A stretch of DNA of 64,000 nt. Source: Escherichia phage Delraymugoa. Under the pieces are notes generated by a model, which saw nothing but the letters and a program-made list of their open reading frames with translations, made no database searches and was not told the DNA's origin. Of this stretch, positions 14,001 through 49,722 are shown one piece after another. The stretch lies in sequence record OR896825.1; one strand, 5' to 3'. How positions within the stretch are numbered: the first letter of the stretch is position 1; every line of letters starts with the position of its first letter. The translations under genes and the position numbers were made by a program.

Positions 14001-14007
14001 CTACTTT

Positions 14008-14226
14008 TTACTTGTTGTATTCATTCCACCATTGGGTTAGCTTATCAATTATTTTTGTGTTTCTATCCAACTTCTCCCACCGTTTTCTAGGGTTTATCAA
14101 CCGGAATAGGTAAGGTGTACTTGTTAAGTGAACTCGGTCAATGTAGTGATTGATGTACTGCTTTTCGATTCTAAGTTTCATCTTTTTACGATGAAAATAT
14201 GCAATGACTTGTTCTTCTGTTTCCAT
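14008..14226 (-). CDS. hypothetical protein (72 aa)
   Basis: ORF. Confidence 0.45.
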   Translation of the reverse strand: METEEQVIAYFHRKKMKLRIEKQYINHYIDRVHLTSTPYLFRLINPRKRWEKLDRNTKIIDKLTQWWNEYNK

Positions 14227-14250
14227 ATGTTCCTCCGTTTCGATGTGCGT

Positions 14251-14279
14251 ATTATGCTATGGCAAGATCAGATTGTCAA
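14251..14279 (-). promoter_or_regulatory. early promoter TTGACA-N17-CATAAT
   Basis: revcomp 14274-14279 TTGACA. Confidence 0.5.
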
Positions 14280-14286
14280 CACCCAA

Positions 14287-14315
14287 TAACAAAAAAGTCG
14301 CCACTATGGGCGACT
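14287..14315 (-). terminator. rho-independent terminator
   Basis: hairpin AGTCGCC/GGCGACT then UUUUUUGUUAUU on minus. Confidence 0.6.
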
Positions 14316-14326
14316 TTGAACAAACA

Positions 14327-14803
14327 TTAATCATGACCGTGATTTGCAATATCCGCTCGCGTCTTATCTTTGTGATTTCCTACGTCAAAGACACGATAAC
14401 CATTTTCACGCAAAACTTTAATCACTTCTGGGTTATCCTCAAAGACTCCGACAACTTCATCTTTATCAAAGGATTTAATTACCTCTAATTTGATGTGATA
14501 GTCTTTACGGGAATCGGTACGGCCTCTCATAAAGATTTTATCAAAACACACCCCGTTAGAAATTAACCAATCAATTGTTTCCATGTAAGCATGTGAACTT
14601 CGTCCGGTGAGGATGTAAATCAAATGCCCGTTGTCGGAAAGAGCATTAATAACACGAATTACATCGTAAATGGGGGAATCACCCCCACATGCCTTGTTAT
14701 ATTCGATCCATGACTCGACTTTATCAAGATTTTCGGTTGGCATCTTTGCTAGTCGATGTGTTGGATCTGTGATCGTAAAATCTAAATCGACAAAATATAT
14801 CAT
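14327..14803 (-). CDS. HAD-superfamily phosphatase (possible nucleotidase)
   Basis: motif I DLDFT (DxDxT), motif II ILTGRS, motif IV FEDN. Confidence 0.55.
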   Translation of the reverse strand: MIYFVDLDFTITDPTHRLAKMPTENLDKVESWIEYNKACGGDSPIYDVIRVINALSDNGHLIYILTGRSSHAYMETIDWLISNGVCFDKIFMRGRTDSRKDYHIKLEVIKSFDKDEVVGVFEDNPEVIKVLRENGYRVFDVGNHKDKTRADIANHGHD

Positions 14804-15960: not shown

Positions 15961-15975
15961 TAATTCACCTCACTA

Positions 15976-16143
15976 TCACTTTTTAACACAAAAGAACTTA
16001 GTATTTCTGTTTATTTCGTTATCCTGTTGCAATTCCTGCACGGCTTCAAAACAGCTTTGATGTGATGAAAACTCCACGCTGGTAACAGTTCCTTTATTAT
16101 ATGAGCCTACACTAACGGAAAGCAATAACCATAATGTAGCCAT
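15976..16143 (-). CDS. small protein with hydrophobic N-terminus (55 aa), tandem paralog
   Basis: hand translation MATLWLLLSVSVGSYNKGTVTSVEFSSHQSCFEAVQELQQDNEINRNTKFFCVKK; start overlaps upstream stop (TAATG). Confidence 0.5.
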   Translation of the reverse strand: MATLWLLLSVSVGSYNKGTVTSVEFSSHQSCFEAVQELQQDNEINRNTKFFCVKK

Positions 16144-16316
16144 TAGTTCACCTTTTGTTTTTCAACGCAATATAGATTCATAAAGCGTTTATTGTCTTCG
16201 CGGATAATCTCGCGAGCTTTAACGCAATCCTGCTTTGTTGCAAATTCAATGCTTGACATATTTCCGTAATTATACATTGAATTGCTGATTGCAATCAATA
16301 ACCATACAGTAGCCAT
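16143..16316 (-). CDS. small protein with hydrophobic N-terminus (57 aa), tandem paralog
   Basis: hand translation MATVWLLIAISNSMYNYGNMSSIEFATKQDCVKAREIIREDNKRFMNLYCVEKQKVN; TAATG overlaps at both ends. Confidence 0.5.
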   Translation of the reverse strand: MATVWLLIAISNSMYNYGNMSSIEFATKQDCVKAREIIREDNKRFMNLYCVEKQKVN

Positions 16317-28100: not shown

Positions 28101-31100
28101 ATGGCAGATTTTTCTCAACATTTCAAGGCCACATTTGGCTTTGACGCTGGTAATGAAAAGGTCGTCAATGTAGCATTGGCTGATAAGAATGTCAACACCG
28201 ATGCGGTCAACGTTGAATTTTTCAATTACCATAATGGTATTACTCAGTATGACACAACTCGCGGTTATGATCAATACGGAACTACAATCTATCAAAACCG
28301 TCCGTATTATGCAAAAGAAGATATCACAAAGCCAGCAGGTGATTTTGACCCGACTAAATGGCAAGCACTGCGCACGGACCCACGTTGGGATTATATTGCA
28401 GCAACTTCCGGTGATACTCCTTTAAAGTCTGGTGATTATATCGCAGCAGATGGTCAATTTGCAAACTTGACTTTCTCTATGCCAACTAAACCAGCAGAGG
28501 GAGACACTATAACAGTAAAAGATATCGGTGGCAAGTGTGGTGTTAACGAATTATCGTTCTTGAGTACAGGACATGAGTTTTACCATAACGGTAATGTGTA
28601 TAACAGAAAATGGTATTGCACTACCCCGTATGCAATGAACTATTTCATCTTTGTTCGGAATCGTTGGCATGTTTATCAGACAGGAACAGAGCCACGCGGT
28701 GTGTACGCACAGCCAGCGATTGATGCTATTCAAATGCAGAATGGTGATCAGGTATTTCGTCGTAGTTCGTTGGGTAATATTACCTTAGTGCTTCCTAAGT
28801 TTGCCAACAATGGCGACATGATCCAGACTACAGACCTTGACGGATTAACCGCAACCAACCACGTTACGGTTAAAGTTCATGAGCACGCAGAAGAACAATC
28901 AATTGGCACGTCCGGTCTAAAAGAGATTATCGGTAAGCGTAGCGGTCATGGTGTATTCATCTTTGACAAGACGGAAAACTTATGGCGTTTGTGGGATGGT
29001 GATCAGTCTGTTCGTCTTAAACCGATCATCAATGACACTCGCTTGCAACCTAATAGCTATGTTGCTGTATTTGGTGGTCGTGATGTTACTCTGACGCTGC
29101 CGACCAATGTCGAGCCGGGTGATCGTATTCAAGTTTCTATGCAGTATATGCACGGAAACCAGACTTGCCGAATCATTACCTCAGAAGAGGATACAAAAAT
29201 CCTTATGCAGAAAAACATGGTTCAGTTTCCTAAGCGTAGCGAGTACCCATTCAATGGGACCGATACATGGACTGGAGTGTCTGAATTGTCTTTCAACGCT
29301 GCAAATGATTATGTACCTTATCTGGAGTTCTCTTATTCAGAAGGTGATGATGGTAAGAAATACTGGTTGGTGGCACATGCTCACCCGATTGTAGAACGAG
29401 TAGATCCGACTCGTAAAGATCGTGTTGGTGTAATTGCACTGGCTACCCAGACTGAAACGAATAAAAACCATGAAGAGAATCCTAGCGACGAAGTTGCTGT
29501 AACACCAAAAATGCTGGCTAATAAAACAGCCAACGAAACTCGACGCGGTATTGCTCGCATTGCGACTCAAGCGGAAACGCATCAAGATACTGGTTCCAAC
29601 TTCCTGGATGATGTTATCGTTACACCCAAAAAGTTAAATGACTGTGTTGCTACCGAAGCCCGTCGTGGTGTGATGGAAATTGCAACCCAGCACGAAACCA
29701 ATGAAGGTTTAGACGATACCCGCGCTATTACTCCTAAGAAATTAGAAGAACGTCGCGCTTCCGAAGATCTAGCTGGTATTGCTGAAATTGTTCAGGCTGG
29801 CGGTAGTGCTGCCGCTCGACGTGGCGAAGCTGGTACAGGGATCTATAACATCAACGACCATGCTAAAATTGTTACGCCACAAAACATCAACGAAGTCAAG
29901 GCGACCGAAACTTCCCGTGGTGTTGGCTATCTGGCAACTGACGCGGAAGTGCAAGGGGCTACAGAATCAACCCCGCAAGATGCTTTACTAATCACGACTC
30001 GCACGCTAACGAAACGTACTGCTACCGAATCGCGCACTGGTATCGCTGAAATTGCAACTCAGGAAGAAACAAACTTAGGTCAAAGTGATAACCATATCAT
30101 CACGCCTAAAAAGCTGCATACTCGCCGCGCAACTGAAACTTTACATGGTTTAGCAGAAATTGCAACTCAACCGGAGTTTGACGCAGGTCGTGACGATTCT
30201 CGCATTTCTACCCCATTGAAGATTAAAACCTTCTTTGAGAATGCACAGCGTTTGAAAGTAGATCCGACTCAGGGGCTTAACCTTACTGGTGATTTGTGGC
30301 AAGGTATCATGATCAGCGGTCTGGATGCAACCGAAGACACAAAAGGTGTCGCTAAAGTTGCTACTACTCAGCTTACTGACGCTGGTCAAGATGATACTAC
30401 AATCATCACGCCTAAAAAGCTGCAAGGCAAAAAGGCCACCGAAGGTAAAGAAGGTATTATCCGGGTTGGTACTCAAGCCGAAACCGTTGCTGGTATTATG
30501 GACAATGTAGCAATTTCTCCGAAGAACTTCAAATATGTTGTTCAGACAGAGGATACATGGAAAGCAACCGAAGCGCGTCGTGGATTCTTGAAAGTTGCTA
30601 CTCAGGAAAACTGTTTTGTTGGTGACAATCTGCAAGGTTCTACTCAAGAACTAGGAAACTACCAGCATGACGGAATTGCTGTTACCCCGAAAGGATTAAA
30701 CTACGCACTTGCTAATTTCTTACCTAAGATGGCAACCGCTCAGAATAGTTTGAAATTGGGTAACGTAGAGGCCGCTAAATGGGCGCGTAGAGACATTGAC
30801 CAGACCATAGAGAGCAATTACACGTTTAATAAAAAAGTTAACGTGAAGGGCGATTTAGAGTGCTTAAAATCAGGTTCCTTTGAAACTCTGTCTGTGACTA
30901 AGAACTCGACCGATGTTCCGAGTAATGGTCATCTGGTGTTGGGTGAGCGTGGAGTTGACGGTCACACCGGAATTACTCTGCATGGCACAACCGCATCGGA
31001 AGGCATGAAAAACTCTTGGTCTATTATCGTTGGTGGTACGGGAACAGCGCAAGTTGTTGATAGTGATGCTATCGCTTTCGGTAAAATCAATGATGGTGGA

Positions 31101-31841
31101 GTCGTTGAGCATTACGCCTTTGCTATGAAACACAATGGCGACGCGACAGCATATAGAGACTTTATTGCAGGTCGTAACCTGTATGCGAAACAAGGCGGTT
31201 TATACATTGTTGACCAGTCTAATCCGGCAATGACTCGTTCCCCAGATGGTATGCTGAATATCGGCCACGGTGGAAGTGTTAACATCAAGGCAGGTCATCA
31301 AACGTTAACTACAGAGATCGCCGGACAGAAATATCAGATCGTACACGCAGGAAACGCTGACGAAGTTCTTAACCGTCAGTTTGTTAAGAATGCTGGCGAT
31401 ACAATGGTCGGTAAGCTGACTATGGATAATGCGCCTATTGTTTCTGTTAAGCATGAAGCTAGCGCGGCAACCGCTCCGGCAATCGGTAACATCGGTTTCT
31501 GGAATATGCGAGTTACTACCCAGAACATCAAAGAAACTTATCCAGAGAAGAAAAACGGTACTCTGATGCAATGGGGTACTGACGCGGACGGGCTTACCCA
31601 GCTTTGGTCCCCTGATGGTACTCATAAACATTATATCCGTTCCGGTACTGGTGGTCAATGGACCGCATGGGGTGAAATTTACACCAAACAGAACAAGCCT
31701 ACCGCTCAGGAAATTGGGGCAGTGGTTGCCGAAGGTGGTTTGATGAACTCTATGACGGTTCGTGATTGGATCAAAGTTGGTAATGTTAAAATCATCGCCA
31801 ATAATCTGACTCGTACCGTAGACTTTATCTGGGAAGACTAA
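28101..31841 (+). CDS. 34: long tail fibre proximal subunit (gp34-like)
   Basis: 1246 aa, repeated GIAEIATQ.ET...ITPKKL motifs, followed by 35-36-37. Confidence 0.8.
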   Translation: MADFSQHFKATFGFDAGNEKVVNVALADKNVNTDAVNVEFFNYHNGITQYDTTRGYDQYGTTIYQNRPYYAKEDITKPAGDFDPTKWQALRTDPRWDYIAATSGDTPLKSGDYIAADGQFANLTFSMPTKPAEGDTITVKDIGGKCGVNELSFLSTGHEFYHNGNVYNRKWYCTTPYAMNYFIFVRNRWHVYQTGTEPRGVYAQPAIDAIQMQNGDQVFRRSSLGNITLVLPKFANNGDMIQTTDLDGLTATNHVTVKVHEHAEEQSIGTSGLKEIIGKRSGHGVFIFDKTENLWRLWDGDQSVRLKPIINDTRLQPNSYVAVFGGRDVTLTLPTNVEPGDRIQVSMQYMHGNQTCRIITSEEDTKILMQKNMVQFPKRSEYPFNGTDTWTGVSELSFNAANDYVPYLEFSYSEGDDGKKYWLVAHAHPIVERVDPTRKDRVGVIALATQTETNKNHEENPSDEVAVTPKMLANKTANETRRGIARIATQAETHQDTGSNFLDDVIVTPKKLNDCVATEARRGVMEIATQHETNEGLDDTRAITPKKLEERRASEDLAGIAEIVQAGGSAAARRGEAGTGIYNINDHAKIVTPQNINEVKATETSRGVGYLATDAEVQGATESTPQDALLITTRTLTKRTATESRTGIAEIATQEETNLGQSDNHIITPKKLHTRRATETLHGLAEIATQPEFDAGRDDSRISTPLKIKTFFENAQRLKVDPTQGLNLTGDLWQGIMISGLDATEDTKGVAKVATTQLTDAGQDDTTIITPKKLQGKKATEGKEGIIRVGTQAETVAGIMDNVAISPKNFKYVVQTEDTWKATEARRGFLKVATQENCFVGDNLQGSTQELGNYQHDGIAVTPKGLNYALANFLPKMATAQNSLKLGNVEAAKWARRDIDQTIESNYTFNKKVNVKGDLECLKSGSFETLSVTKNSTDVPSNGHLVLGERGVDGHTGITLHGTTASEGMKNSWSIIVGGTGTAQVVDSDAIAFGKINDGGVVEHYAFAMKHNGDATAYRDFIAGRNLYAKQGGLYIVDQSNPAMTRSPDGMLNIGHGGSVNIKAGHQTLTTEIAGQKYQIVHAGNADEVLNRQFVKNAGDTMVGKLTMDNAPIVSVKHEASAATAPAIGNIGFWNMRVTTQNIKETYPEKKNGTLMQWGTDADGLTQLWSPDGTHKHYIRSGTGGQWTAWGEIYTKQNKPTAQEIGAVVAEGGLMNSMTVRDWIKVGNVKIIANNLTRTVDFIWED

Positions 31842-31874: not shown

Positions 31875-33014
31875 ATGACACAAGATATAGAATTACGCAA
31901 TACTGGAATTAGGTTTGCGCATTTCGACGAAGACTCTGCGACATTTACCAGCATTTCAGAAAATAACTCTGTGATGTATAAGCTGGAAGTGCGCGGATCT
32001 AATGCGGATTCTACCAAACCAGCAAGGATTAGATTTAATGGAGTGGAGATCGTTGGCACTGGCTATGAAAATGGCCTAAATTTTAAAGTTCTTACTCCAA
32101 CTGGACAGCTACACGAAGAAAAGGTATTCTATGGTCGCGGTGCTGTTTTGGCAATGCGTGATTATCTTTCTTTGCTGAAAGGTGACTATATCATTGCGAT
32201 GGCAACGCATGGAGAATTGTTTGCAGATCCGATAAGTGATGTTGTATTTTCTAAGATGGGATCTGTATCATTCCCGAATCACATTTTGTTACAGCAAATG
32301 CCTCGTGTATCCTATGCAGCAATTTATTCTACTAAAATGGGTAAAATTGTGTGCGAAGGGATGCAAGCGACCAACGGGGAAGGACAAGATTCATCTATAC
32401 AAATTGAGAAAGTCTATGATACTATAGATGATCTTGCTATAACAGGAACACCACAACGATTTTTAGATTATCCGGTTGAGTATGTTAGCGAAGATGCCGA
32501 ACATTTCGAGCTAATACAATGGCCTCATGATGAGATCAGCGCACCACTTGAAGATTTTAACATAAAAGCAGGTGACAAACTATCAATATCTTTTGAATTG
32601 TTCCGTGATAGTGCCGCAGCCGCAGCCAACGTAACAGCGCGTTTCTATCACAACTACTTCACCGATGGACAATATAAAACTGGTGTTCGATACAATGCCA
32701 GCAAAAAAGATCAATGGGAAAAGTTTGAAGCCGTCTATACCGTACCGGAAGGAGTTGATAGTGTTACCACTGGTTGCGTTAGATATCCAACCAACTCAAA
32801 TGAAGGTATTGTTAAAGTTAGAAACATACTAATAACGCCGATCAGTGGAGTTGTCAAAACGACTGGTCCTACTTCCTTTGGTGTTAACGGTGTTAGAACA
32901 ACTCACATTCAGGATAACGGTGATTTTACTAACCCTGTAATGAGTCTTCTTAAACTACCCAGAGACAATAAACATATCACATCCAACAACTTTAAAGAGT
33001 TCGATGTTGATTAA
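31875..33014 (+). CDS. 35: long tail fibre hinge connector (gp35-like)
   Basis: 379 aa, position between 34 and 36. Confidence 0.6.
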   Translation: MTQDIELRNTGIRFAHFDEDSATFTSISENNSVMYKLEVRGSNADSTKPARIRFNGVEIVGTGYENGLNFKVLTPTGQLHEEKVFYGRGAVLAMRDYLSLLKGDYIIAMATHGELFADPISDVVFSKMGSVSFPNHILLQQMPRVSYAAIYSTKMGKIVCEGMQATNGEGQDSSIQIEKVYDTIDDLAITGTPQRFLDYPVEYVSEDAEHFELIQWPHDEISAPLEDFNIKAGDKLSISFELFRDSAAAAANVTARFYHNYFTDGQYKTGVRYNASKKDQWEKFEAVYTVPEGVDSVTTGCVRYPTNSNEGIVKVRNILITPISGVVKTTGPTSFGVNGVRTTHIQDNGDFTNPVMSLLKLPRDNKHITSNNFKEFDVD

Positions 33015-33174: not shown

Positions 33175-33182
33175 TATAAATA
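33175..33182 (+). promoter_or_regulatory. T4-type late promoter TATAAATA upstream of gene 36
   Basis: exact TATAAATA 34 nt before ATG 33216. Confidence 0.65.
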
Positions 33183-33215: not shown

Positions 33216-34706
33216 ATGGCAGATTTGAAACATGGATCTACTGTAGGCGGATCTCCCATTTGGACGCAAGGAAACTTGACGATCCAGCCAGCGGGGGATC
33301 AGCTTTTCTACAAAGGTCATAAAATCTATACCGCTTTTGATAGACCTTCGGCTACCGATTTTGATGCTGTTAGCGCATCCGAAGGTGGAACATTTCAAAA
33401 GCAAGTTCATTTCGAGGAAGGTTTAAGCGTAGGTAGCGCATCGGCGGGTGAAACCAAAAAGAATGGTATCTTTAAAGGCCAGAGTGATGCTGCTAATTTT
33501 GACGGTGTAAGCTGGGGTTTGCATTCATGGAAGTCAATCGGCTTTGTTAATGCCCGTGATGGCGTTATCATGGCGTATATTGACACCACAACGGGCGAAT
33601 TTAAGTCTAAAGGGACTATCGAAGGGACAACCATTAAAGACACTGGTCAACGCGTCTATAGCCCTGTTAATAAACCAACGAATAATGATTTAGATTTGGT
33701 GTCTCGTCGCGGTGATACTCTCACAGGAACATATAATTTAAACACTGTCACTGTTAAACTATCGGTTGATTCGAAATTAATTGCAAGGGAACGTGATTTA
33801 ATTAATTTTGATGCGACTAAGATCTATTATGGTAACGTTCTTGACACGTTGGTCTTCCGAAGTAAAGATGAGCCTACCATTTTTGTTAATGGCAGAGAAG
33901 GTCGTTTTTATCACACCAACAATAAACCAACTAAAGCCGATGTTGGGCTAGGCAATGTCACCAATGATGCACAGGTTAAACGTGCTGGTGATATTATGGA
34001 AGGTAACTTGCAAGCGCCTAGAATGTTGGCGACAAACGATCCTGCTGGTCCTAATGAATTGGTTCGTTTGAGCTACTTTGAGAGAAAATCAATGGTAGCA
34101 AATCCAACCATCATTGGAAACGTTGATTGGAACACTCTTATTAATCGCGGTATCTATCGTGTGGAAAATGCTGGATCCGGTACTAATAAACCGTCTGATA
34201 GCTATTATAACGGCGTTTTGATGGTATATCGCCCAGAAGATGCGGTCGGTACTCGTCGAATTGTTCAAGTGTATTATCCTGAATCTATTGACCATCCGAT
34301 GTGCTGGCGTTCGTGTTCTAATGAATCATGGACTGCATGGAACTATGTAGATCACCGTAAATTAGCCGATATTCGCTATGTTAACGTCACTGGCGATACA
34401 ATGACAGGACCGTTAACTGTTCCGGCTGCAAACGGTGTTAGAACAGCTAAAACTAACTATAACGGGGATAACTGTTATGCGGCGTTAAGCGGTGCTGATG
34501 GTACTGCTATGATTCACCGCATTAGTGATATTAAAGGGACCGAAAAGCTGGGGATCACCCACGACTCAAAGGTCGTGTTTTTCCGTTCTAGAAACAATAC
34601 TCAAACCGTGGACCGCTATCAGCTTTATCATGAAGGTAATAAACCTACTCCGGCTGATGTTGGCGCGGTTCCACTTAATGCGGTGATTGATTTTGGTACT
34701 TTCTAA
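33216..34706 (+). CDS. 36: long tail fibre distal subunit, proximal part (gp36-like)
   Basis: 496 aa, repeated YH.GNKPT.ADVG motifs shared with gp37. Confidence 0.6.
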   Translation: MADLKHGSTVGGSPIWTQGNLTIQPAGDQLFYKGHKIYTAFDRPSATDFDAVSASEGGTFQKQVHFEEGLSVGSASAGETKKNGIFKGQSDAANFDGVSWGLHSWKSIGFVNARDGVIMAYIDTTTGEFKSKGTIEGTTIKDTGQRVYSPVNKPTNNDLDLVSRRGDTLTGTYNLNTVTVKLSVDSKLIARERDLINFDATKIYYGNVLDTLVFRSKDEPTIFVNGREGRFYHTNNKPTKADVGLGNVTNDAQVKRAGDIMEGNLQAPRMLATNDPAGPNELVRLSYFERKSMVANPTIIGNVDWNTLINRGIYRVENAGSGTNKPSDSYYNGVLMVYRPEDAVGTRRIVQVYYPESIDHPMCWRSCSNESWTAWNYVDHRKLADIRYVNVTGDTMTGPLTVPAANGVRTAKTNYNGDNCYAALSGADGTAMIHRISDIKGTEKLGITHDSKVVFFRSRNNTQTVDRYQLYHEGNKPTPADVGAVPLNAVIDFGTF

Positions 34707-34776: not shown

Positions 34777-37683
34777 ATGGCAGATTTAAGCAGAATCCAA
34801 TTTAAACGTACTAGCACTAAAGGCCGTCGACCTGATGCTGGTACGATGAATCCGGGGGAATTGGCAATCAACCTTGCGGATCAATATCTTCTTACTAAAA
34901 ATGATTCCGGTGCTATTATCAATTTAAGTTGTCCTCCGGTTTATGACAGCGATGTTACAATGGCGGGTAAGGTTAAAGGAAATAATTATATTTTAAGTAA
35001 AACCGCTAATTATTTTGAAGACCAAACCGCGCGAGATCTTAATTATTTTGGTGCGTTTCGACCGAATAATGCTGATGGTTGGTCTAACTTGATTCTGAAC
35101 ATTCCTCATCCCAGCGGTAAAGCACACGGTCGCGGGTTTGAATTTGAATATGGTTCTAGTTCCTCTCAGGTTAAAACCTATGGCTTTGATAAGGATGGTA
35201 ACAAGAGATTCAGCTTTCGCATGTATCACGAAGGTGATAAACCTACCCCATCGGAATTGAACGTTTATAGCAAACAAGAAGTTGACCGCATGTTTGTTAA
35301 AAACGTTAAAATGTCAACTCCTGCTGATGTAAGTAGAGGATATTTCAAAATTGCTACCGCTATGATCCCACAGCAAGGAAGAATGGCATTTATTCGTATC
35401 TATGGTGGTAATGGATATAACGTAAACTATATGGATCAAGTTGACTTTGTAGAAATCGTGATTCGTGGTGGGAATGGAAATCCTAAAGGTGTTAGTATTG
35501 CCGCATATCGACGAAATGCTTTAAATCAGCTTGAAGTATTTGCTATTAATACATCTGGTGATAACTATGATATCTATGTAAAATATGGTCGATACACCGA
35601 TAACGTTATTGTAGAATTTGGAAAAACGGTCGATGTTAATTTAACGGTTCATGATGTTCCGGCTTTTTCGGAAGCAAAACCTGCTGGTACTACCTTTGAA
35701 GGTCGTATTATTACCATGTTCAACACCGAAAACAAAGCAGGAACGTTGATGTTTGATAATAACTCACAAGCAACCTATGATATTGTGAGTCTTAGCAATG
35801 CACCTGATAATAGCCGAAATTATCTGCGTAAATTCCGTAGCAAAGCGAATGAAACAATATGGCATGAAACTGTTCAAGGTGATGTGTATCGTTTGGCTAC
35901 TGGTTCCACCGACCAAAAAGAAGTATTAAAAATTGTTGGTAGTGATGGTTTATTTGTCAATAGACTTCATCTGCAAGGCAATAACGCGATTCGTATGTGG
36001 CGTCCTACTGGTTGTAGTAACTATTTTGAATATATGGATCAGCGAGACGGGGCTAATAAACGTCAAGGGTGGTTTGGTTTTGGTTCTATAGAAACCAACG
36101 ATTTTCAATGGTATAGTGACGAAGGTAAAAACTTTGTTAAGCTAGAAGCAAGTGGTCAAGTATCTTTAAGCGCAGGTGCAACCAAAATTGTATACACTAA
36201 TGGTCAATATGTAGCTGCCAATTCTGATGCATACCGTATGATCTTTGGTAATTATGGTGCATTCTGGCGTAATGACGGCATTAAAGTTTATCTTCTGTCT
36301 ACTGCCGAAAATGATAGATTTGGTGGCTGGAACGGCAACCGACCATTCATTTACGATTTAACAACTGGTAAAGTTACTTTAGGTGGCGACGGTAACGAAG
36401 GCGCATTAGTTCTCGAAAGAGATAGCCGTGCTGCCCGTTTTGTGGGTGACATTTATGTCGGTAACGGAATGTTAACCTTTGATGCCGGACGATTAAATTC
36501 TCGCGATTACTTCCGGTTTAATCATTGGGGTGATAGCAATAACGCGCGTGATAACATCTTACAGCTTGACGATAGCATGGGTGCACACTTCACCACTGAA
36601 CGTACTTTAGCAACTGGTGCGATTAAAACTAAATTCTTCGGTGATTTGGAATCTGCTGGTCAAATTAAATGGGGTAAAGGGACCGCCGCATCTACGTTTA
36701 CTCTACGTGTATGGGGTAACGATAGTCGTAAACAAATATTTGAATGCGGCGATGAAAGCGGGTGGCATTGGTATACCCAACGCGCGGGCGGTCCGGATAC
36801 TTCTGCAATTGAGTTTGCCATCAACGGTACTGTTAAGCCTCAAGCAATTCACACTGGCGGTAATATCACGCTTAACGGTGCTGATATTGAATTTAAACGA
36901 AGCGGTAACAAGCATTTATGGTTTAGAGATCCGAACGGCTTAGAGTTGGGTCTGTTGTACTGCGATGATGCTGGTGTTATGCGTATTCGTGGGGAGAAAT
37001 CGACCGAAGTATGGAAATTCTCAGCAAAACAGATTCATCTGGAAACTGGTACTGCCGGAAATGGTGTAGGCTTGCTTCGTGGTGCTGTAGGTGGTGGCGC
37101 ATGGACTCAATGGCGAGATCGTGGCACTGGCTTGCAGGTTGATTGTCAGCAATCTGAAAACTCAGCGCATAACGTATGGAGAGCTACGCATCAAGGAAAA
37201 TACCACATCGCGGCAATGGGTGTACACGTTCCTGGTGGTACTATCGGAAATGCTATGGTGCGTATTCATGTACACGATGCAACTTTTGACTTTAGCGCAA
37301 CTGGTGATTTCCAAGCAGGTCGTAACGGTAATTTTAACGATGTGTACATTCGTTCTGATGCTCGCCTGAAAATCAATAAGGAAGAGTATAAAGAGAATGC
37401 CACCGATAAAGTTAATCGCTTGACGGTATACACCTATGACAAGGTTAAATCTTTAACCGACCGTACTGTCATTGCTCATGAAGTTGGTATTATTGCTCAG
37501 GATCTTGAGAAAGAATTGCCAGAAGCAGTAACAACCTCGAAGATCGGCGACGGTGATACACCAGAAGAGATCTTAACAATTTCTAACTCTGCTGTCAACG
37601 CTCTTTTAATTAAGGCGTTTCAGGAAATGAGCGAAGAATTGAAAGCCGTTAAAGCTGAACTAGCGGAACTTAAAAAGAATTAA
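34777..37683 (+). CDS. 37: long tail fibre distal subunit / receptor-recognising fibre (gp37-like) with C-terminal intramolecular chaperone domain
   Basis: 968 aa; C-terminus SDARLKINK...VIAHEVGIIAQDLEKELPEAV resembles peptidase S74 / endosialidase chaperone domain. Confidence 0.8.
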   Translation: MADLSRIQFKRTSTKGRRPDAGTMNPGELAINLADQYLLTKNDSGAIINLSCPPVYDSDVTMAGKVKGNNYILSKTANYFEDQTARDLNYFGAFRPNNADGWSNLILNIPHPSGKAHGRGFEFEYGSSSSQVKTYGFDKDGNKRFSFRMYHEGDKPTPSELNVYSKQEVDRMFVKNVKMSTPADVSRGYFKIATAMIPQQGRMAFIRIYGGNGYNVNYMDQVDFVEIVIRGGNGNPKGVSIAAYRRNALNQLEVFAINTSGDNYDIYVKYGRYTDNVIVEFGKTVDVNLTVHDVPAFSEAKPAGTTFEGRIITMFNTENKAGTLMFDNNSQATYDIVSLSNAPDNSRNYLRKFRSKANETIWHETVQGDVYRLATGSTDQKEVLKIVGSDGLFVNRLHLQGNNAIRMWRPTGCSNYFEYMDQRDGANKRQGWFGFGSIETNDFQWYSDEGKNFVKLEASGQVSLSAGATKIVYTNGQYVAANSDAYRMIFGNYGAFWRNDGIKVYLLSTAENDRFGGWNGNRPFIYDLTTGKVTLGGDGNEGALVLERDSRAARFVGDIYVGNGMLTFDAGRLNSRDYFRFNHWGDSNNARDNILQLDDSMGAHFTTERTLATGAIKTKFFGDLESAGQIKWGKGTAASTFTLRVWGNDSRKQIFECGDESGWHWYTQRAGGPDTSAIEFAINGTVKPQAIHTGGNITLNGADIEFKRSGNKHLWFRDPNGLELGLLYCDDAGVMRIRGEKSTEVWKFSAKQIHLETGTAGNGVGLLRGAVGGGAWTQWRDRGTGLQVDCQQSENSAHNVWRATHQGKYHIAAMGVHVPGGTIGNAMVRIHVHDATFDFSATGDFQAGRNGNFNDVYIRSDARLKINKEEYKENATDKVNRLTVYTYDKVKSLTDRTVIAHEVGIIAQDLEKELPEAVTTSKIGDGDTPEEILTISNSAVNALLIKAFQEMSEELKAVKAELAELKKN

Positions 37684-37725
37684 GGAAAAATCCCAGGGAA
37701 GGGAAACTACTAAGGAGAAACGGCT

Positions 37726-37965
37726 ATGGTCTATAATATCGTCATTGGTGCTTTGTCTAATTTCGGAATGAAATTATTGTCAAAGTTAATTAGTGAAAAG
37801 ATGCTCACTAAAATTTTCTTCTATTGCGCTCGTCGTCTTGCGGCTTATACCAATACGCCAATTGATGATCGTTTTGTGGAAGAACTTTATAAGGAGTTTA
37901 ATAAAGATCAGTCAGAAGATAGTAACGAGCAAGATAAACCTAGTGATAGTCAACTACCTAAATAA
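37726..37965 (+). CDS. small hypothetical protein (79 aa) between fibre gene and holin
   Basis: strong RBS TAAGGAGA; hydrophobic N-terminus. Confidence 0.5.
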   Translation: MVYNIVIGALSNFGMKLLSKLISEKMLTKIFFYCARRLAAYTNTPIDDRFVEELYKEFNKDQSEDSNEQDKPSDSQLPK

Positions 37966-37998: not shown

Positions 37999-38655
37999 AT
38001 GCAAGTTTCTGAAAAAGGGAAAGACTTTGCTATCTCAAATGTCCTGCGCGCTATTTTCACAACTAAAAGCACGGAGTTGCTCGTACTTCGTGTTTTTGCT
38101 GCCGTCGTGTTGTCCATATTAGCATTTGTCGTTTATAGTAAAAACGAGTTATTTGCGCTTTATAAAGAGACTCGTTATGAGACTTATGCTCACATTCTCC
38201 AGGTAGAGAAAGACCGCAATTTTGATAATGCAGCACAGGAGCAGTTACAGATAGTTCATGTGTCGGCTGATGCCGATTTTTCTGCTGTTTTTAGTTTTCG
38301 TCCGAAAAACCTAAACTATTTTGTTGATTTGGTGGCATATGAAGGAAAGCTACCTCACACAATCGATGAAAAAAATTTAGGCGGATTCCCTATCAATAAA
38401 ACGAGTGAAGAATATCGTAGGCATCTTTTAGGTAAATCATATTTTACCGATAAAGATTTCCAGTATATTCCATCAAGAGAAAAGAAATTAGAGAATATCG
38501 ATATAGGTTTCATGTATTCTTGTCCTATATTCAATCTCGATAATGTCTATTCTGGTAGTATCGCCATTTCATGGAAGAATAAACCGGATATTGACATTGA
38601 GAATTTAGATACTCTTTGCAATCAATCTGCCAGAATCCTCGGAAGGATTAGATAA
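37999..38655 (+). CDS. t: holin T
   Basis: 218 aa; LQIVHVSADADFSAVFSFRPKNLNYFVDLVAYEGKLP and CNQSARILGR match T4 holin. Confidence 0.85.
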   Translation: MQVSEKGKDFAISNVLRAIFTTKSTELLVLRVFAAVVLSILAFVVYSKNELFALYKETRYETYAHILQVEKDRNFDNAAQEQLQIVHVSADADFSAVFSFRPKNLNYFVDLVAYEGKLPHTIDEKNLGGFPINKTSEEYRRHLLGKSYFTDKDFQYIPSREKKLENIDIGFMYSCPIFNLDNVYSGSIAISWKNKPDIDIENLDTLCNQSARILGRIR

Positions 38656-40951: not shown

Positions 40952-41710
40952 TTACTTGCAAACGTATTGATCTACATCAATTGCGCCACCGAATGTAGGA
41001 TGACGTTTTTCAAATCTAATAGTTCCGTCGTTTGGTTCGAAAACGGAGTATTCATATAGATCTTTCTTGCCAACATTCTTATAAAACCCGCCTTTAGTCA
41101 TAACGGTTTCTTGTACGTTTGCTTTGTGTACGTTGTATTCGTCAATGTATACAAAATCAACCATCTTCCCATTTTTAATGGTTACTTTAAGATCTCCTGG
41201 TTGATTTCCATATTTGGCATACAGTGGCGCTTCTTTAATTTTTGTGGAAATTCCATCTTTCATACTCCACTCATAACGAACGGTGCATTGATAGGTAAAA
41301 GTTTCGACCTTCGGTTCTTCGACCACTTTTGCTTCCTGTTTCGGTTGTTCTTCTTCAACCTTCGCAGAAGTCTCTGAATCGCTTTCTGACGCGGTTTCTT
41401 CTTTAGGTAATACATTCATCAAGTTTTGGATTTGAGCGTTATATACAGCCTCCAGTGGCTGAATCTGCCCGATATTGATCATTGTATCACGAACAGTTTT
41501 ATTCCAGTTTCGTTGCTCTTGTTTCAGAGACGGATCAATCTTAACAGCCTTAACATACACCTCATGAAGTTTAGAGTCCAGTGCGGAGATAGACTCATTA
41601 GCACAAATAAACTTCTCTGATTTGGTAGTAGCTTTAGCGCAATCAAAGGACGCAGCGTTAGCACCGAAAGCAGTAGCAGAAAGAACGATAGCAGCGATAA
41701 TGTTTTTCAT
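40952..41710 (-). CDS. secreted protein with DUF1311 (LprI-like) N-terminal domain
   Basis: signal peptide MKNIIAAIVLSATAFGANA; motif C.KATTKSEKFICANESISALDSKLHEVY...QRNW; acidic linker; Cys-containing C-terminal domain. Confidence 0.55.
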   Translation of the reverse strand: MKNIIAAIVLSATAFGANAASFDCAKATTKSEKFICANESISALDSKLHEVYVKAVKIDPSLKQEQRNWNKTVRDTMINIGQIQPLEAVYNAQIQNLMNVLPKEETASESDSETSAKVEEEQPKQEAKVVEEPKVETFTYQCTVRYEWSMKDGISTKIKEAPLYAKYGNQPGDLKVTIKNGKMVDFVYIDEYNVHKANVQETVMTKGGFYKNVGKKDLYEYSVFEPNDGTIRFEKRHPTFGGAIDVDQYVCK

Positions 41711-44020: not shown

Positions 44021-45378
44021 CCCTTCTTAAGTTCTTTAAGATCTTTCTTATATTCCTTCATTGCGGTCGTCTTTGTCCAATACTCATATTCACTATGATG
44101 TTTATCGGCATCTTTGACCAGTCGATCATACTCTTCTTGAGTAACGCTATACAATGGCATAGAAACTAGCTTATCGGCGTATGGACGCAGTTTTTCATGT
44201 CCATTGATGGATTGCATTACCTCGGCCTTTTTCTTGCCCTGTAGCTCGATTTCGCCCTTAATTACGCGGTCGATAAATTCAGCTTTAGCCATTGCATAAT
44301 TGTATGCTTCCAGTGTTTCCGCTTGCATCAATTCAATGCGTTTATCGACATACCCTAATCGGATTTCGACGAATCGACGGATCAGATCGCTCGCTTTCTC
44401 GAATACTTCAACTAAACCACGTTCATTAACCACTACGATATTCTGGGCTACTAACTGCGTTAGTTTAAAATCCTTCATGATTTGCTCATGTCGAGCGGAT
44501 TCATCTTCGCTTTTGAAATAATCGCGTTTCAGTGTTACTTCAAATCTGAATCCGTCCTTAGAGCAACGGTCATTATACGATACAATCAGATCTTTTTCTT
44601 CCAGTGCATCAAGTACCGCTACATATTCTTCACGGTCGAACTTATAAGGAACTTCTGATATTGTCAGCTTAGTCTTGCCGTTTAGTTCATATGTACCCTC
44701 AAGAATCACACCATCGCGATCATCTCGCGGGATAACTTTACCCGTGAATTTCGGGAATTGAACACTAGGTTCTTTATCCAGTTTTCCGGCAAGTGCTAGC
44801 TCTGTGCATTCAATGAGGCTTTCCAGTGAATGCGGTAAAATGTCAGTTTTATACCCTGTAGCAATACCACTAATACCATTAGCCAATACCATTGGCACAA
44901 CTGGCAAGTAGAACGCTGGCGGGATGTGTTCCAGATCTTCGTGCTTGGGTGCGCAATTCATATCTTTATAGATTTTAAAGAAGTTTTCATGCACGCGAGC
45001 AAAGATATAACGTGCCGCACCTGCTTTCTGGACTAAACGCGATCCGAAGTTACCTTGACCGTCAAGCAGTGGAGTATTATTGCTCCATGTATTCGCCATA
45101 AGTGATCCGGCTTCTACGGCATTAGTTTCCCCGTGGTGATAACCCAACTCGGCAACACCAGATCCAATATCTGCCATCTTACGGAATTTCTTACGGTCGC
45201 CTTTACTCTTTTGCAAAGCACATTCCATAACAAAGCGTTGCACTGGTTTAAGCCCATCTACTAATTGAGGAATCCCGCGTTCCTCGGCAGAATAGATCGC
45301 ATATTCCTTAGCTTCATTATGTACAATGCTTTCAAGGCTGCGGTAAGTAACTGATTTATTCATCTTCACCTCATACAC
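44017..45378 (-). CDS. 52: DNA topoisomerase II medium subunit (gp52, GyrA-like)
   Basis: 453 aa; catalytic Tyr region (FARVHENFFKIYKD), placement before rIIB. Confidence 0.8.
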   Translation of the reverse strand: MYEVKMNKSVTYRSLESIVHNEAKEYAIYSAEERGIPQLVDGLKPVQRFVMECALQKSKGDRKKFRKMADIGSGVAELGYHHGETNAVEAGSLMANTWSNNTPLLDGQGNFGSRLVQKAGAARYIFARVHENFFKIYKDMNCAPKHEDLEHIPPAFYLPVVPMVLANGISGIATGYKTDILPHSLESLIECTELALAGKLDKEPSVQFPKFTGKVIPRDDRDGVILEGTYELNGKTKLTISEVPYKFDREEYVAVLDALEEKDLIVSYNDRCSKDGFRFEVTLKRDYFKSEDESARHEQIMKDFKLTQLVAQNIVVVNERGLVEVFEKASDLIRRFVEIRLGYVDKRIELMQAETLEAYNYAMAKAEFIDRVIKGEIELQGKKKAEVMQSINGHEKLRPYADKLVSMPLYSVTQEEYDRLVKDADKHHSEYEYWTKTTAMKEYKKDLKELKKG

Positions 45379-45733
45379 GCTTACAAATCACATTCTTTAC
45401 TTTATCAGATTTATCAGCCCAATCCAATAGCCATTTTAACGGAAGGATTGACACAATAAACGGGGCAGCAATCAAAGCAAACATGATACACCTGATAATC
45501 AGGAAAACGCAAGTGACAAAACTAGCGATAGTGATCCCGACAAAACAAAATACCATAGAAAACAGAGTAATGATATAGAAAGGCCAGAATACCCACTCCC
45601 GCATCTTAACGCCTTTGTATTCTCTGAATTGCTTAAAATCTACAAACAACTCTCGGATAGACGCGTACAGGACAGAAAAATCATCTTTCATTGCTCTGAA
45701 TGAGCAATCTTCTATTTTAGAATGACCTAGCAT
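45371..45733 (-). CDS. membrane protein (120 aa)
   Basis: two long hydrophobic segments. Confidence 0.45.
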   Translation of the reverse strand: MLGHSKIEDCSFRAMKDDFSVLYASIRELFVDFKQFREYKGVKMREWVFWPFYIITLFSMVFCFVGITIASFVTCVFLIIRCIMFALIAAPFIVSILPLKWLLDWADKSDKVKNVICKRV

Positions 45734-45735
45734 TA

Positions 45736-46029
45736 TTAACCGCCTTTAACCATTGATACAGGAATTGTTTTCTGATTTGTGTATAAGTGGCCTACTTCAA
45801 TTTTTTCTTGAATCACCACGACGTTACAATATCCACTGTCTTTAAGTTTTCTGATAATGACTCGCTTTTGTTCGTCGGTGATAGGATTGACTGTTCTCAC
45901 CAATTCACCGCAAATAATAGCACCATCTTTACAATTACCAGTAACTTTCATGCTACGACCGTGAACAACAACCACGTCACCGTAAATCACATTTTCGTCG
46001 TCGTATTTGGTAATAACCGTGACCGTCAT
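45736..46029 (-). CDS. hypothetical protein (97 aa)
   Basis: ORF. Confidence 0.4.
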   Translation of the reverse strand: MTVTVITKYDDENVIYGDVVVVHGRSMKVTGNCKDGAIICGELVRTVNPITDEQKRVIIRKLKDSGYCNVVVIQEKIEVGHLYTNQKTIPVSMVKGG

Positions 46030-46074
46030 AATGTATTCCCTCTAAGAAAGGCCGCGCAAAGCGGCCTATGTTGA

Positions 46075-46407
46075 TTATTGTTCTACAGTATAACCGTTGT
46101 TTTCAAGCCATGCAATAACAATCTTTTCGCCAATTTCATCGAGCATTTCATCAGCGCCATATTCTTTAATGAAAGTCGATGGATCATTATTGCTTACTAC
46201 GTGCTGGATCACAACATGTTCAGGAATTGCGTCTAGTAGTTCGCTATGATCATACTCATTAACGATATCTTCAACACTAACATTATTAACCAAATCAACA
46301 TCATCCATAGTCACAGTAACGCGACCGGACGGACGCAATGAATATTGGCTACTTTCAACTTCAACATGTGCACTTTCGCAAGTAACTTTCATATCAACCA
46401 TAATCAA
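46075..46407 (-). CDS. acidic hypothetical protein (110 aa)
   Basis: ORF. Confidence 0.4.
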   Translation of the reverse strand: MIMVDMKVTCESAHVEVESSQYSLRPSGRVTVTMDDVDLVNNVSVEDIVNEYDHSELLDAIPEHVVIQHVVSNNDPSTFIKEYGADEMLDEIGEKIVIAWLENNGYTVEQ

Positions 46408-47469: not shown

Positions 47470-47601
47470 ATTACTTTGCTTCGACAACCTTGCGGATTGT
47501 GCGGTCTGATACATTATAGATTCGTGCCAGTTCGCCTTTAGTCAAGCCGCGAGCGTATTGTTTACGGATGGTTTCTTTCTGGATAGCGGTCAGTTTAGTC
47601 A
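47470..47601 (-). CDS. small HTH protein (43 aa), not in ORF track
   Basis: hand translation MTKLTAIQKETIRKQYARGLTKGELARIYNVSDRTIRKVVEAK; helix-turn-helix pattern similar to rIIB N-terminus. Confidence 0.4.
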
Positions 47602-47613
47602 TAATATCACCTC

Positions 47614-49722
47614 TTAAAATTTAACATTCTTAACCAGTTTCATAAAGTCTTGTGCGCGTTTGTCGTTATGCAGAATACGATACCAGTTATCTACAATATC
47701 ATACAGTAACGGGCTATTCTCTTTAAACTTCTCACAAACTGCTTTAATTCGTTCGTTTGCTGCCGTGAATTTTTCATCACAGATCTTTTTAGTTTCTTCG
47801 TCCATAATCCAACGAGTATGAAGGAGTAACTTGGAAACCTCTTTATTATAATGACGACCGTACAGTCTGTCAATAAATTCTGGAATACAGCGTTCTAGTT
47901 CATCGTCATGAAACAACATAGTGATCACACCCAGATATTCGCCATACCCCAGATGATTGGTCTTAACCTTCTTAGCCAGACCAGCCAGCTTACCGCGAAC
48001 AAATTCTAGCGCACATTCCAATTGTTCGTCAACGAGATATTTTTGTGTCTCGTTTCGAGTAATAATATACTTTGTTACCCCGAAGTAGTCAAGCGCCGTG
48101 TGTAATGTATTTTCACTATGGATCGATTTACGACTACGGCTTTCGAATGCATCACCTACGCGGAACATGTGCAAGCCTGATAACTCGCGAATCTCTGCCG
48201 CTTTCATGTGATGGCTGGTTTTATGCCAACTGTCACCAATCTTTTCCATGATATACACGTTAGGCAGCTTAGGAGTCGCTTCACGTTGTGTACGCTCGGT
48301 CTTTTCCGGCTTAACTGCTTTAGCACGCAGATCATCGGCCTCGGACACTTTAATCACGGTCATTTCAGAATCATCATAATACTGTTTGATGTACTCGAAA
48401 GTCTCCATATGTTTTTCGTTGCGCTGACGGAACACAAGTACCTTTTTATTGATGCCGTATTCCTGGACCATACCGTTAAGAGTCAGTGCACGCAGTTTCG
48501 GTTTATCGGTATCATCAATAAGACACGTAATATCTTCTTTATGCATCCATACAAAATGCGTAATGTTGTATTGACTGCTAACGAAAGCAGGGCGCAATTT
48601 ACTGATTGTGTGACGAGTACGATACAGAGTATACACCTGACCTTCTACGTCATTAGGCGAATCTTTACCCGCATTCACAAACTTATTATAGATTGCTACC
48701 GGATCATCCCACTGCCCGATCTTACCCATCTTGCTAATAATATTGCGTTGAGTCGATGAATACTCGCTCATAAATTGCGCAAGTTTACGCTCTGTTTTAA
48801 TGTTGGCGATCTTCTCTTTAACCTTTTCCAACATCATTTCATTGATTTCTGCAATGCGTTTTTCGATGTTCGCTTTAGTCTCAATTGACAAGTGAACTTC
48901 TTCACGCGATGGCATCAGGTCCAGATCACCCAACTCAAAATTAATGTAAATGGTCTGGTGCTGGCGGTTTACAGCTTCTAACCATGTTCCGCGAACATAT
49001 TCATACGGGATCGGGTACTGGATCTTACCCATGATTGCATATACCACATAGGAATCGTTATCACGCCCATTACAAACATAATAATTATCAAAGCTAGGGA
49101 AATAATTAATTTCGATTGCATTGATATTAGGTTTGTGTTCCCCAAAATGACGCAGTACAAACTGTGCTTCTCGATGCCATGTCTGAATATCTTTCTCTTT
49201 CACCGGAATAGTGATTTTCAGACCATTGTCTTCATATGTCGGTTCGTCGAAAATCTGCACCATTTTCGGCATCGAGTTTTGCACAAATGCCGTAAAGCCA
49301 TAAGCGCGACCATTGTAATAGTTTACGATTGTAAAGGTGTCGGTATAGCTATAAGCAGACTTCGCACCCAAACCAAAAGACCCGATATAGTCATTAGTCT
49401 GGTCTTTTGTTGATTCAAAGTAAACCGTAAACAGTTGTTCTAATTCTTTCTTAGACGGAATACCAGTACCATAATCACGCACAGAAAAATACGGTTCGAT
49501 TGCAGTCGGTAAATGAATATCAAACGGACGATCTAAGGTTCCGGCTTCTTTGTGAGTGTCGGTAGCATTGCACGAATACTCACGGACGCAAGCACGCTCA
49601 CAATATTGATAAGTGTTCTTAGAAAGCACCATAAAAGCCTTGCTACTTGCTTTCAGTGAAAAATCAACCGCACCGCTCAAGTCACTGCCAAATACTTCTT
49701 CATTATCAATATGCATTTTCAT
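47614..49722 (-). CDS. rIIA: rIIA protein
   Basis: 702 aa, position after rIIB, GHKL-ATPase-like N-terminal region. Confidence 0.8.
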   Translation of the reverse strand: MKMHIDNEEVFGSDLSGAVDFSLKASSKAFMVLSKNTYQYCERACVREYSCNATDTHKEAGTLDRPFDIHLPTAIEPYFSVRDYGTGIPSKKELEQLFTVYFESTKDQTNDYIGSFGLGAKSAYSYTDTFTIVNYYNGRAYGFTAFVQNSMPKMVQIFDEPTYEDNGLKITIPVKEKDIQTWHREAQFVLRHFGEHKPNINAIEINYFPSFDNYYVCNGRDNDSYVVYAIMGKIQYPIPYEYVRGTWLEAVNRQHQTIYINFELGDLDLMPSREEVHLSIETKANIEKRIAEINEMMLEKVKEKIANIKTERKLAQFMSEYSSTQRNIISKMGKIGQWDDPVAIYNKFVNAGKDSPNDVEGQVYTLYRTRHTISKLRPAFVSSQYNITHFVWMHKEDITCLIDDTDKPKLRALTLNGMVQEYGINKKVLVFRQRNEKHMETFEYIKQYYDDSEMTVIKVSEADDLRAKAVKPEKTERTQREATPKLPNVYIMEKIGDSWHKTSHHMKAAEIRELSGLHMFRVGDAFESRSRKSIHSENTLHTALDYFGVTKYIITRNETQKYLVDEQLECALEFVRGKLAGLAKKVKTNHLGYGEYLGVITMLFHDDELERCIPEFIDRLYGRHYNKEVSKLLLHTRWIMDEETKKICDEKFTAANERIKAVCEKFKENSPLLYDIVDNWYRILHNDKRAQDFMKLVKNVKF

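Follow-up and report, generated by a model that had tools for sequence, protein, structure and literature searches.

The distal long tail fibre subunit of Escherichia phage Delraymugoa: a C-terminal S74-type chaperone and a tip probably capped by a distantly encoded gp38

The DNA stretch of Escherichia phage Delraymugoa that was analyzed (64,000 nt of record OR896825.1, called the window in the following) very probably encodes a long tail fibre tip of the T2/S16 type, as is standard for RB49-like phages (Krischvirus), with the adhesin gp38 encoded elsewhere in the genome. Three gp37 chains would fold and trimerise with the aid of their own Peptidase_S74-type chaperone, which would then remove itself by a cut between R859 and S860 in which S860 and K865 act. 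Subsequently, gp38 would cap the fibre, and its glycine-rich C-terminal domain would bind the receptor (OmpA or certain O antigens in the case of RB49). For Delraymugoa, we infer both that the cleavage takes place and that the fibre is capped by gp38. The arrangement has already been described and is ordinary for RB49-like coliphages. The features of the region are summarized in Table 1.

Table 1. Features of the fibre and holin region of the window.
Feature	Position (nt)	Strand	Basis
T4-type late-promoter consensus TATAAATA, upstream of gene 36	33175..33182	+	pattern match
Gene 37, long tail fibre distal subunit precursor, 968 aa	34777..37683	+	ORF list; PHROG 1699; megablast
gp34-like trimerisation domain within gp37, aa 417-526	36025..36354	+	Pfam Gp34_trimer, E 2.8e-28
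Most variable gp37 segment, aa 681-840, distal shaft before the conserved tip	36817..37296	+	allele alignment
Conserved mature C-terminal tip, aa 841-859, ending ...GRNGNFNDVYIR	37297..37353	+	comparison with fFiEco06 and S16
Intramolecular chaperone, Peptidase_S74 type, aa 860-968 (109 aa, including C-terminal helix)	37354..37680	+	PF13884; 6F45_A
Shine-Dalgarno sequence AAGGAG of the 79-aa ORF, 8 nt ahead of its ATG	37712..37717	+	read from the sequence
79-aa ORF, homologue of RB49 Dc5 / RB49p252	37726..37965	+	PHROG 402, E 5e-20
Holin t	37999..38655	+	Pfam Phage_holin_T, E 4.5e-61; PHROG 860, E 5e-88

The gp37 precursor and its chaperone

The assignment of the fibre gene was based on a match of its product to PHROG 1699, "long tail fiber protein distal subunit" (E 5e-175), and on its megablast relatives, which were genes 37 of Krischvirus; the NCBIfam search yielded no family for gp37. 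Judged by sequence, the window belongs to a Krischvirus, i.e., an RB49-like phage. The gene order 34-35-36-37-Dc5-t is common to RB49 and the window, and the RB49 gp37 (RB49p251) contains the same two Pfam domains, Gp34_trimer and Peptidase_S74. The identity between the two phages is 77% for gp37 overall, about 96% for the chaperone, and 97.5% for Dc5 (RB49p252/253). The trimerisation domain also matched the solved T4 gp34 structures 4uxe and 5nxf. The closest overall DNA match of gene 37 had only about 89% identity, with 92% of the query covered. In contrast to RB49, the allele is a mosaic, in which residues 1-470 resemble GoldenSnicker (88-100%, depending on the region) and residues 471-968 resemble W115 and FL37 (92-99%). 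It is only a new recombinant of already known alleles.

The initial annotation had proposed a self-cleaving chaperone domain at the C-terminus of the fibre and had suggested a profile search as a check. The Pfam profile Peptidase_S74 (PF13884) indeed matched gp37 at residues 860-919, covering profile positions 1-58 of 58, with an E-value of 1.4e-11 and a score of 44.9 bits, above the curated gathering score of 22. The match is far beyond chance. In addition, a search of solved structures with the last 129 residues of gp37 had the S16 gp37 (6F45_A) as top match, with an E-value of 7.9e-5, and both results support the proposed domain. A single-sequence AlphaFold2 model of the same 129 residues had a mean pLDDT of 48.5, too poor for a fold search. 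The domain occupies the extreme C-terminus, where it had been placed originally, but the figures given at that time (about 115 residues, starting at about nucleotide 37340) have to be revised: the profile match starts precisely at S860 of SDARLKINK, nucleotide 37354, and the domain comprises the last 109 residues. The chaperone is 95-96% identical between pairs of Krischvirus alleles.

The residues S860-D-A-R-L-K865 contain the Ser-x4-Lys pair typical of S74 chaperones and align with SDRRIK of S16 and SDGRLK of fFiEco06. The identity of the Ser/Lys catalytic dyad reportedly goes back to the work of Schulz 2010 on endosialidase chaperones (cited in PMC7917993), and S860 and K865 are predicted to be the catalytic residues of gp37. 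The motif at the start of the domain is DVYIR^SDARLK (^ denotes the cleaved or predicted bond). The cleavage site of S16 is DLNVS^SDRRIKK, and by alignment to S16 the site DVYIR^SDGRLKI has been assigned to T2-like phages (PMC7917993). The gp37 sequence DVYIR^SDARLKI nearly matches the latter, and self-cleavage at this position is predicted to release the chaperone.

Within the long tail fibre, the T4 gp37 is located at the same position, and its N-terminal shaft is homologous. In contrast, its tip is a receptor-binding needle without an S74 domain, and a separate lambda Tfa-like gp38 chaperone is needed, none of which applies here. Neither Pfam nor PHROG gave a match to a T4-type needle tip or to an adjacent Tfa-like chaperone gene, and the next gene is Dc5 (PHROG 402).

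The mature tip and the position of gene 38

It had been proposed originally that the receptor-binding tip is probably in the fibre itself. An exposed gp37 tip would then bind the receptor without gp38, as in the T5 protein pb1 or the K1F endosialidase. These proteins share the PF13884 chaperone family and the logic of self-cleavage with gp37. Three observations fit such a fibre: the S74 domain at the C-terminus, the lack of a gp38 match in the window, and the hypervariability of residues 681-840 among the alleles, which is often seen in receptor-binding regions. However, in the K1F endosialidase and pb1 the region preceding the chaperone is a receptor-binding or enzymatic domain, and there is no cap protein, while in the fibre studied here this region is a shaft of the gp37 type whose docking end is conserved. 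Such a fibre would have no separate adhesin and a pre-chaperone region that sets the specificity, a combination that is contradicted by the gp38 genes of the relatives and by the invariant final 19 residues of the mature gp37.

The co-occurrence of S74 and gp38 also argues against this proposal. In the Tequatrovirus fFiEco06, gp37 has an S74 domain (E 5.3e-11) and the gp38 adhesin is encoded directly after it. In the Krischvirus kvi, the order is gp37 with S74 (E 1.4e-11), gp38, Dc5, and holin. Chaperone and adhesin normally co-occur across the Straboviridae, and they are partners rather than alternatives. In S16 and in Tequatrovirus of the T2/T6 type, the C-terminal chaperone is cut at a Ser followed by D-x-R-x-K, as predicted here. 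The S16 chaperone cleaves itself off and thereby exposes the docking surface for gp38 (PMC7917993); gp37 of this phage was crystallised together with gp38 (6F45), and the chaperone is cut before gp38 docks (PMC7917993, PMC6851490). For RB49, the removal of the gp37 chaperone and the attachment of gp38 are covered by Efimov 2022 (PMC9569957).

Next, the part of gp37 that precedes the chaperone was compared with other phages. Residues 661-859 (199 residues) show homology to the distal part of gp37 from phages of the T2, T6 and RB43 type that carry gp38, with 33-43% identity to RB3, RB6, RB32, RB43, and others, and E-values down to 1e-29. The assumption that this region is conserved as a whole had to be rejected, because the alignment revealed the opposite: conservation is limited to the last 19 or so residues. 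These final 19 residues of the mature protein are invariant among the Krischvirus alleles, and NGNFNDVYIR is the same in Krischvirus and in the T2-type fFiEco06; there, the whole stretch NGNFNDVYIR^SD.RLKINK is almost the same as here. The invariance suits a docking surface better than a specificity determinant, and residues 841-859 are likely to be the new C-terminus after cleavage and the end to which gp38 docks. In S16 and the T2/T6 type the mature tip of gp37 docks the N-terminal domain of gp38, and the same is proposed here. In the RB49-type gp38, a Tyr replaces the third docking Trp of the T2 type.

In S16 and the T2/T6 type gene 38 directly follows gene 37, in contrast to RB49 and the window. 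The statement of the initial annotation that no gp38-like gene follows the fibre gene was literally correct within the 64 kb: a tblastn search of the window with a gp38 adhesin detected none (best E-value 5.2). As a sign that gp38 is absent it failed, because the syntenic locus is located outside of the window, and the negative result is thus uninformative. By synteny, the right end of the window corresponds to RB49 positions 12207-16207, while RB49 gene 38 (RB49p079) is at 45367-46143, and the expected locus is about 29 kb past the right end of the window, between the homologues of rI and dam. The gene 38 of this lineage lies in an early-gene region, roughly 55 kb onward from gene 37 on the circular map. 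It had been reported that gene 38 of RB49 is displaced and that a short ORF with no known function is found in its usual place (Trojet 2011, PMC3157838). The RB49 gp38 encoded at the distant locus is a complete adhesin (Pfam GP38, E 7e-72; Gp38_N, E 6e-18), and a displaced gene 38 is present in all 30 of the closest gp37 relatives listed. From this synteny, the Delraymugoa genome is inferred to carry gene 38.

An alignment of gp38 from six such phages revealed that the first 113 or so residues, i.e., the attachment domain and an adjoining conserved region, are almost invariant. This matches the invariant gp37 tip and was counted in favour of the proposed capping by gp38. In RB49, the host-range mutations fall in gp38 rather than in gp37, and it has been shown experimentally for this phage, by the gp38 E230K/Y231S mutants and the dependence on OmpA, that gp38 sets the receptor specificity (Efimov 2022, PMC9569957). 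Together with the co-occurrence of S74 and gp38 and the presence of gp38 elsewhere in the genomes of the 30 listed close relatives, this speaks against a receptor-binding tip in the fibre itself, which is extremely improbable.

Dc5 and the transcription signals

As had been noted originally, the gene after the fibre gene is a 79-aa ORF with a strong ribosome-binding site, followed by holin t, and all three elements were located. No significant Pfam match and no NCBIfam family were found for the 79-aa ORF. A label as holin or antiholin was dropped, because a hydropathy scan did not clearly reveal a transmembrane segment (the maximum was 1.4 over 15 residues).

It was considered that Dc5 replaces gp38 functionally, either as a new small adhesin or as a dedicated fibre chaperone. 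It has the usual position of gene 38 and a strong ribosome-binding site, and in Felix O1-like phages, Kolesnikvirus, and LAh_8 phages homologues are found right behind genes for tail fibres or tail tips. Furthermore, a role as adhesin or chaperone was raised for small ORFs downstream of gene 37 of phage Aeh1 (Trojet 2011, PMC3157838). However, Dc5 does not behave like an adhesin: it is at least 95% identical (95-100%) in 55 Krischvirus phage records, whereas gp37 and gp38 diversify. In phage kvi it is present alongside an adjacent gp38, and it resembles neither gp38 nor the Tfa-type chaperones. One homologue follows a lysozyme gene, in a Vibrio phage, and another overlaps the start of a holin gene, in Felix O1-like phages, which suggests a link to lysis. 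A replacement of gp38 by Dc5 is thus very unlikely. Between the fibre module and holin t, Dc5 appears to be a permanent occupant and no substitute for gp38; this small late gene ahead of holin t is unrelated and highly conserved.

The late-promoter consensus TATAAATA occurs three times in the window, compared to 5.3 expected occurrences; this number is not above chance, and the only hint comes from the positions, ahead of gene 34 and gene 36. Based on its position, the copy upstream of gene 36 may drive a 36-37-Dc5(-t) transcript, and no terminator-like site was found between gene 37 and t on the plus strand. The displaced gene 38 of RB49 has no copy of the consensus immediately upstream and is preceded only by a terminator-like hairpin and then a ribosome-binding site.

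The variable distal shaft and host range

The last question concerned residues 681-840. Among seven Krischvirus gp37 alleles the mean pairwise identity was 0.50-0.66 in this segment, compared to 0.92-0.96 for residues 841-968. Its variation is independent of the gp38 attachment domain, and hence gp37 itself may contribute directly to binding. In such a dual recognition, gp38 would be the main adhesin, and the variable segment would also contact a surface polysaccharide and affect the host range. The segment is the most variable one of gp37 and is swapped between Krischvirus phages independently of gp38. For example, W115, FL37, and MIZ6 share an identical gp38; over residues 661-849 the window allele is 99% identical to W115, but only 19% identical to MIZ6. 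In addition, the recognition of several O antigens and OmpA via the small gp38 was called "counter-intuitive" (Efimov 2022, PMC9569957). On the other hand, RB49 mutants that had gained growth on strain F17 were changed only in gp38 (PMC9569957), and the variability could simply result from recombination between fibre modules. Dual recognition is unlikely, but if true, it would help to explain the use of several O antigens besides OmpA by RB49-like phages.

Taken together, the fibre of Delraymugoa with its probable gp38 cap exemplifies two cautions for annotation. A C-terminal S74 domain on a T-even-type gp37 does not make the fibre its own adhesin, and a gene 38 that is missing beside gene 37 is not necessarily missing from the genome. 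When host ranges of RB49-like therapeutic phages are to be predicted, the gene to inspect is the displaced gene 38.

Gene 37 and its C-terminal chaperone domain

The T4-type long-tail-fibre module of the window was assigned on the basis of PHROG and Pfam scans, and its genes are listed in the table. A gp38 adhesin query found no gp38 in the 64-kb window. The 79-aa ORF that follows gene 37, named Dc5 in the RB49 annotation, has a Shine-Dalgarno-like AAGGAG 8 nt 5' of its ATG. As stated in the initial annotation, gene 37 is thus followed not by a gp38 gene but by a 79-aa ORF with a strong ribosome-binding site and then by holin t, as verified by the ORF calls, the AAGGAG and the gp38 query.

Features of the window and of comparison loci (L005 to L009 and L014 are loci from other phages with their own local coordinates)
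Feature	Position	Strand	Remarks
Gene 34	28101-31841	+	T4-type long-tail-fibre module
Gene 35	31875-33014	+	T4-type long-tail-fibre module
Gene 36	33216-34706	+	T4-type long-tail-fibre module
Gene 37	34777-37683	+	968 aa; PHROG 1699 'long tail fiber protein distal subunit', E 5e-175
79-aa ORF (Dc5)	37726-37965	+	PHROG 402
Holin t	37999-38655	+	Pfam Phage_holin_T, E 4.5e-61
252-aa ORF	40952-41710	-	Downstream of holin t, in a group of small early genes; N-terminus signal-peptide-like (MKNIIAAIVLSATAFGANAAS...); RB49 counterpart RB49p262 (hypothetical protein)
PHROG 402 family, L005	3992-4189		
PHROG 402 family, L006	4004-4213		
PHROG 402 family, L007	3492-3701		
PHROG 402 family, L008	3501-3683		
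PHROG 402 family, L009	3492-3692		
RB49 gene 38 (RB49p079)	RB49 45367-46143		258 aa; GP38 E 7.3e-72, Gp38_N E 6e-18
kvi gp38	L014 4799-5578		Adjoins gene 37
Zyzzx homologue	MW749004.1 84949-85533		Annotated as 'putative nitrite extrusion protein'

The Pfam search revealed two domains in gp37, a gp34-like trimerisation domain (aa 417-526, E 2.8e-28) and Peptidase_S74, the 'chaperone of endosialidase' (aa 860-919, E 1.4e-11). The S74 match spans the full 58-position profile and reached 44.9 bits at a curated cut-off of 22 bits, which verified the predicted C-terminal chaperone; every factual detail of the initial annotation was therefore confirmed. The first residue of the domain is S860 of SDARLKINK (nt 37354), which forms a Ser-x4-Lys pair with K865. 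For the last 129 aa of gp37 the top solved-structure match was 6F45 chain A (E 7.9e-5), a fragment of S16 gp37 that was crystallised with gp38. In S16 the last 113 residues of gp37 are auto-cleaved once the protein has trimerised, and the docking surface for gp38 is thereby exposed; the cut is DLNVS^SDRRIKK, and the aligned T2-like site is DVYIR^SDGRLKI (PMC7917993). The window gp37 reads DVYIR SDARLKI at the matching position. Around this site NGNFNDVYIR-SD.RLKINK is nearly identical in gp37 of the T2-type Tequatrovirus fFiEco06, although the overall identity of the two proteins is only 38%. The 199 residues before the cut are homologous to the distal gp37 of RB3, RB6, RB32, RB43 and many further phages that carry gp38.

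Two further likenesses were observed. The stretch at 36472-36660 (gp37 aa 566-628, LTFDAGRLNSRDYFRFNHWGDSNNARDNILQLDDS.GAHFTTERTLATGAIKTKFFGDLESAG) is almost identical in fFiEco06 gp37; its role could be that of a conserved joint in the structure or of a linker for recombination. The 86-kb, Felix O1-like Hafnia phage Zyzzx encodes a homologue that is 46.5% identical to the pre-chaperone region of gp37; this is probably a tail fibre under a wrong annotation and an indication of tip-module exchange across families.

Displaced gene 38 and the fibre tip

The initial annotation had regarded the chaperone as a replacement for gp38 and had placed the receptor-binding tip in the fibre itself. However, the two co-occur. 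In fFiEco06 a gp37 with S74 (aa 882-940, E 5.3e-11) has as its immediate downstream neighbour a gp38 adhesin that bears GP38 and Gp38_N domains, and in Krischvirus kvi the order is gp37 with S74 (E 1.4e-11), gp38 (GP38 E 1.5e-69), Dc5 and holin. Together with the match to the S16 structure this shows that the S74 chaperone and gp38 are partners, not alternatives. The kvi gp38 has a Tequatrovirus-type N-terminal attachment domain, but its C-terminal domain matches RB49 gp38 in parts; thus, the kvi fibre tip and adhesin N-domain appear to have been acquired from a T2-like phage, with Dc5 retained.

A tblastn search with the gp38 N-terminal query yielded matches in RB49 (45799-46128) and JSE (47533-47862), far from gene 37. 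The RB49 gene is located between rI and dam in an early-gene region, and this displacement has already been published (Trojet et al., PMC3157838). An RB49-type gene 38 is carried by 30 of the 30 phages listed as best hits for gene 37 of the window, including its closest relatives GoldenSnicker, W115, FL37, Whisky, PHB13 and MIZ6. By synteny, gene 38 of the window's phage would lie about 29 kb past the right end of the window, whose RB49 equivalent is 12207-16207; therefore, the absence of the gene from the window is uninformative. RB49 mutants with a new host differed from their parent solely by gp38 E230K or E230K plus Y231S, and resistance to RB49 was found in an ompA knock-out (Efimov et al. 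2022, PMC9569957). A fibre acting as its own adhesin is thus not supported.

RB49 gene 38 encodes a late structural protein in an early-gene region. A terminator-like hairpin (GCCCCTTAATTGGGGCTTTTCTT) is present directly before its ribosome-binding site (5940-5990 of the RB49 locus L004), and no TATAAATA late promoter was found near the gene.

What was observed is the S74 domain, the cleavage motif, a homologous tip and a gp38 in every close relative; the likely mechanism built on these is as follows. Three gp37 chains would trimerise with the aid of their own S74 domains, each domain would cleave itself between R859 and S860, one gp38 would dock with its N-terminal domain on the conserved gp37 end, and the receptor would be bound by the glycine-rich C-terminal domain of gp38. 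Among six RB49-type phages the first ~113 residues of the gp38 alignment, comprising the attachment domain and the conserved region next to it, hardly vary, and the C-terminal loops form three allelic types; gp37 aa 841-968 are 92-96% conserved among Krischvirus alleles. As judged from these alignments, the pattern fits cleavage followed by docking.

The 79-aa ORF

The 79-aa ORF lacks a Pfam or NCBIfam family match as well as any clear transmembrane segment. Its identity is 95-100% across 55 records, in contrast to the diversifying gp37 and gp38, and in kvi it is present together with an adjacent gp38; therefore, it is neither an adhesin nor a replacement of gp38. Distant homologues were found in the Felix O1-like phage mistaenkt (between tail-fibre gene and holin, overlapping the holin start), in an Erwinia Kolesnikvirus (behind a tail-associated gene), in a Vibrio phage (behind a lysozyme gene), and within the structural modules of GAP52 and LAh_8. 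The family pattern is F..KLL...SE...FF.LA...T.T..DD, which includes the conserved motif T-x-T-x-x-D-D. These small proteins are spread over unrelated phages, after tail-fibre or tail-tip genes and/or beside lysis genes, and their role may relate either to lysis or to the fibre.

A mosaic gp37 allele with a variable distal shaft

Megablast assigned the window to the genus Krischvirus, the RB49-like coliphages. The order 36-37-(79-aa ORF)-t is common to RB49, FL37, GoldenSnicker, W115, MIZ6 and PHB13, and the flanking regions share 96-99.8% identity with many phages of the genus. For the stretch of gene 37 and the 79-aa ORF the best match was only about 89% identical over 92% of the length, because the gene 37 allele is, by sequence comparison, a mosaic: taken by region, aa 1-470 share 88-100% identity with GoldenSnicker, and aa 471-968 share 92-99% with W115 and FL37, with the switch point near the gp34-like trimerisation domain. 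The closest allele to the C-terminal half is that of FL37. In the accessible text of Lutz et al. 2025 (PMC12032242) no receptor is named for the two phages discussed there.

Among seven Krischvirus alleles the most variable part of gp37 was aa 681-840 (mean pairwise identity 0.50-0.66), immediately before the invariant tip. Over aa 661-849 the window allele is 99% identical to W115 and only 19% to MIZ6, and the MIZ6 protein is also radically unlike that of W115 and FL37 (gp37 loci L011, L012, L002). Yet gp38 is 100% identical among W115, FL37 and MIZ6 (L015, L017, L019), and thus gp37 and gp38, whose genes are about 55 kb from each other, reassort independently.

The arrangement is that published for RB49 and is therefore already known; the only new element is the recombinant gp37 allele. 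The variability of aa 681-840 may be plain module shuffling, or the distal shaft of gp37 may contribute to surface recognition.
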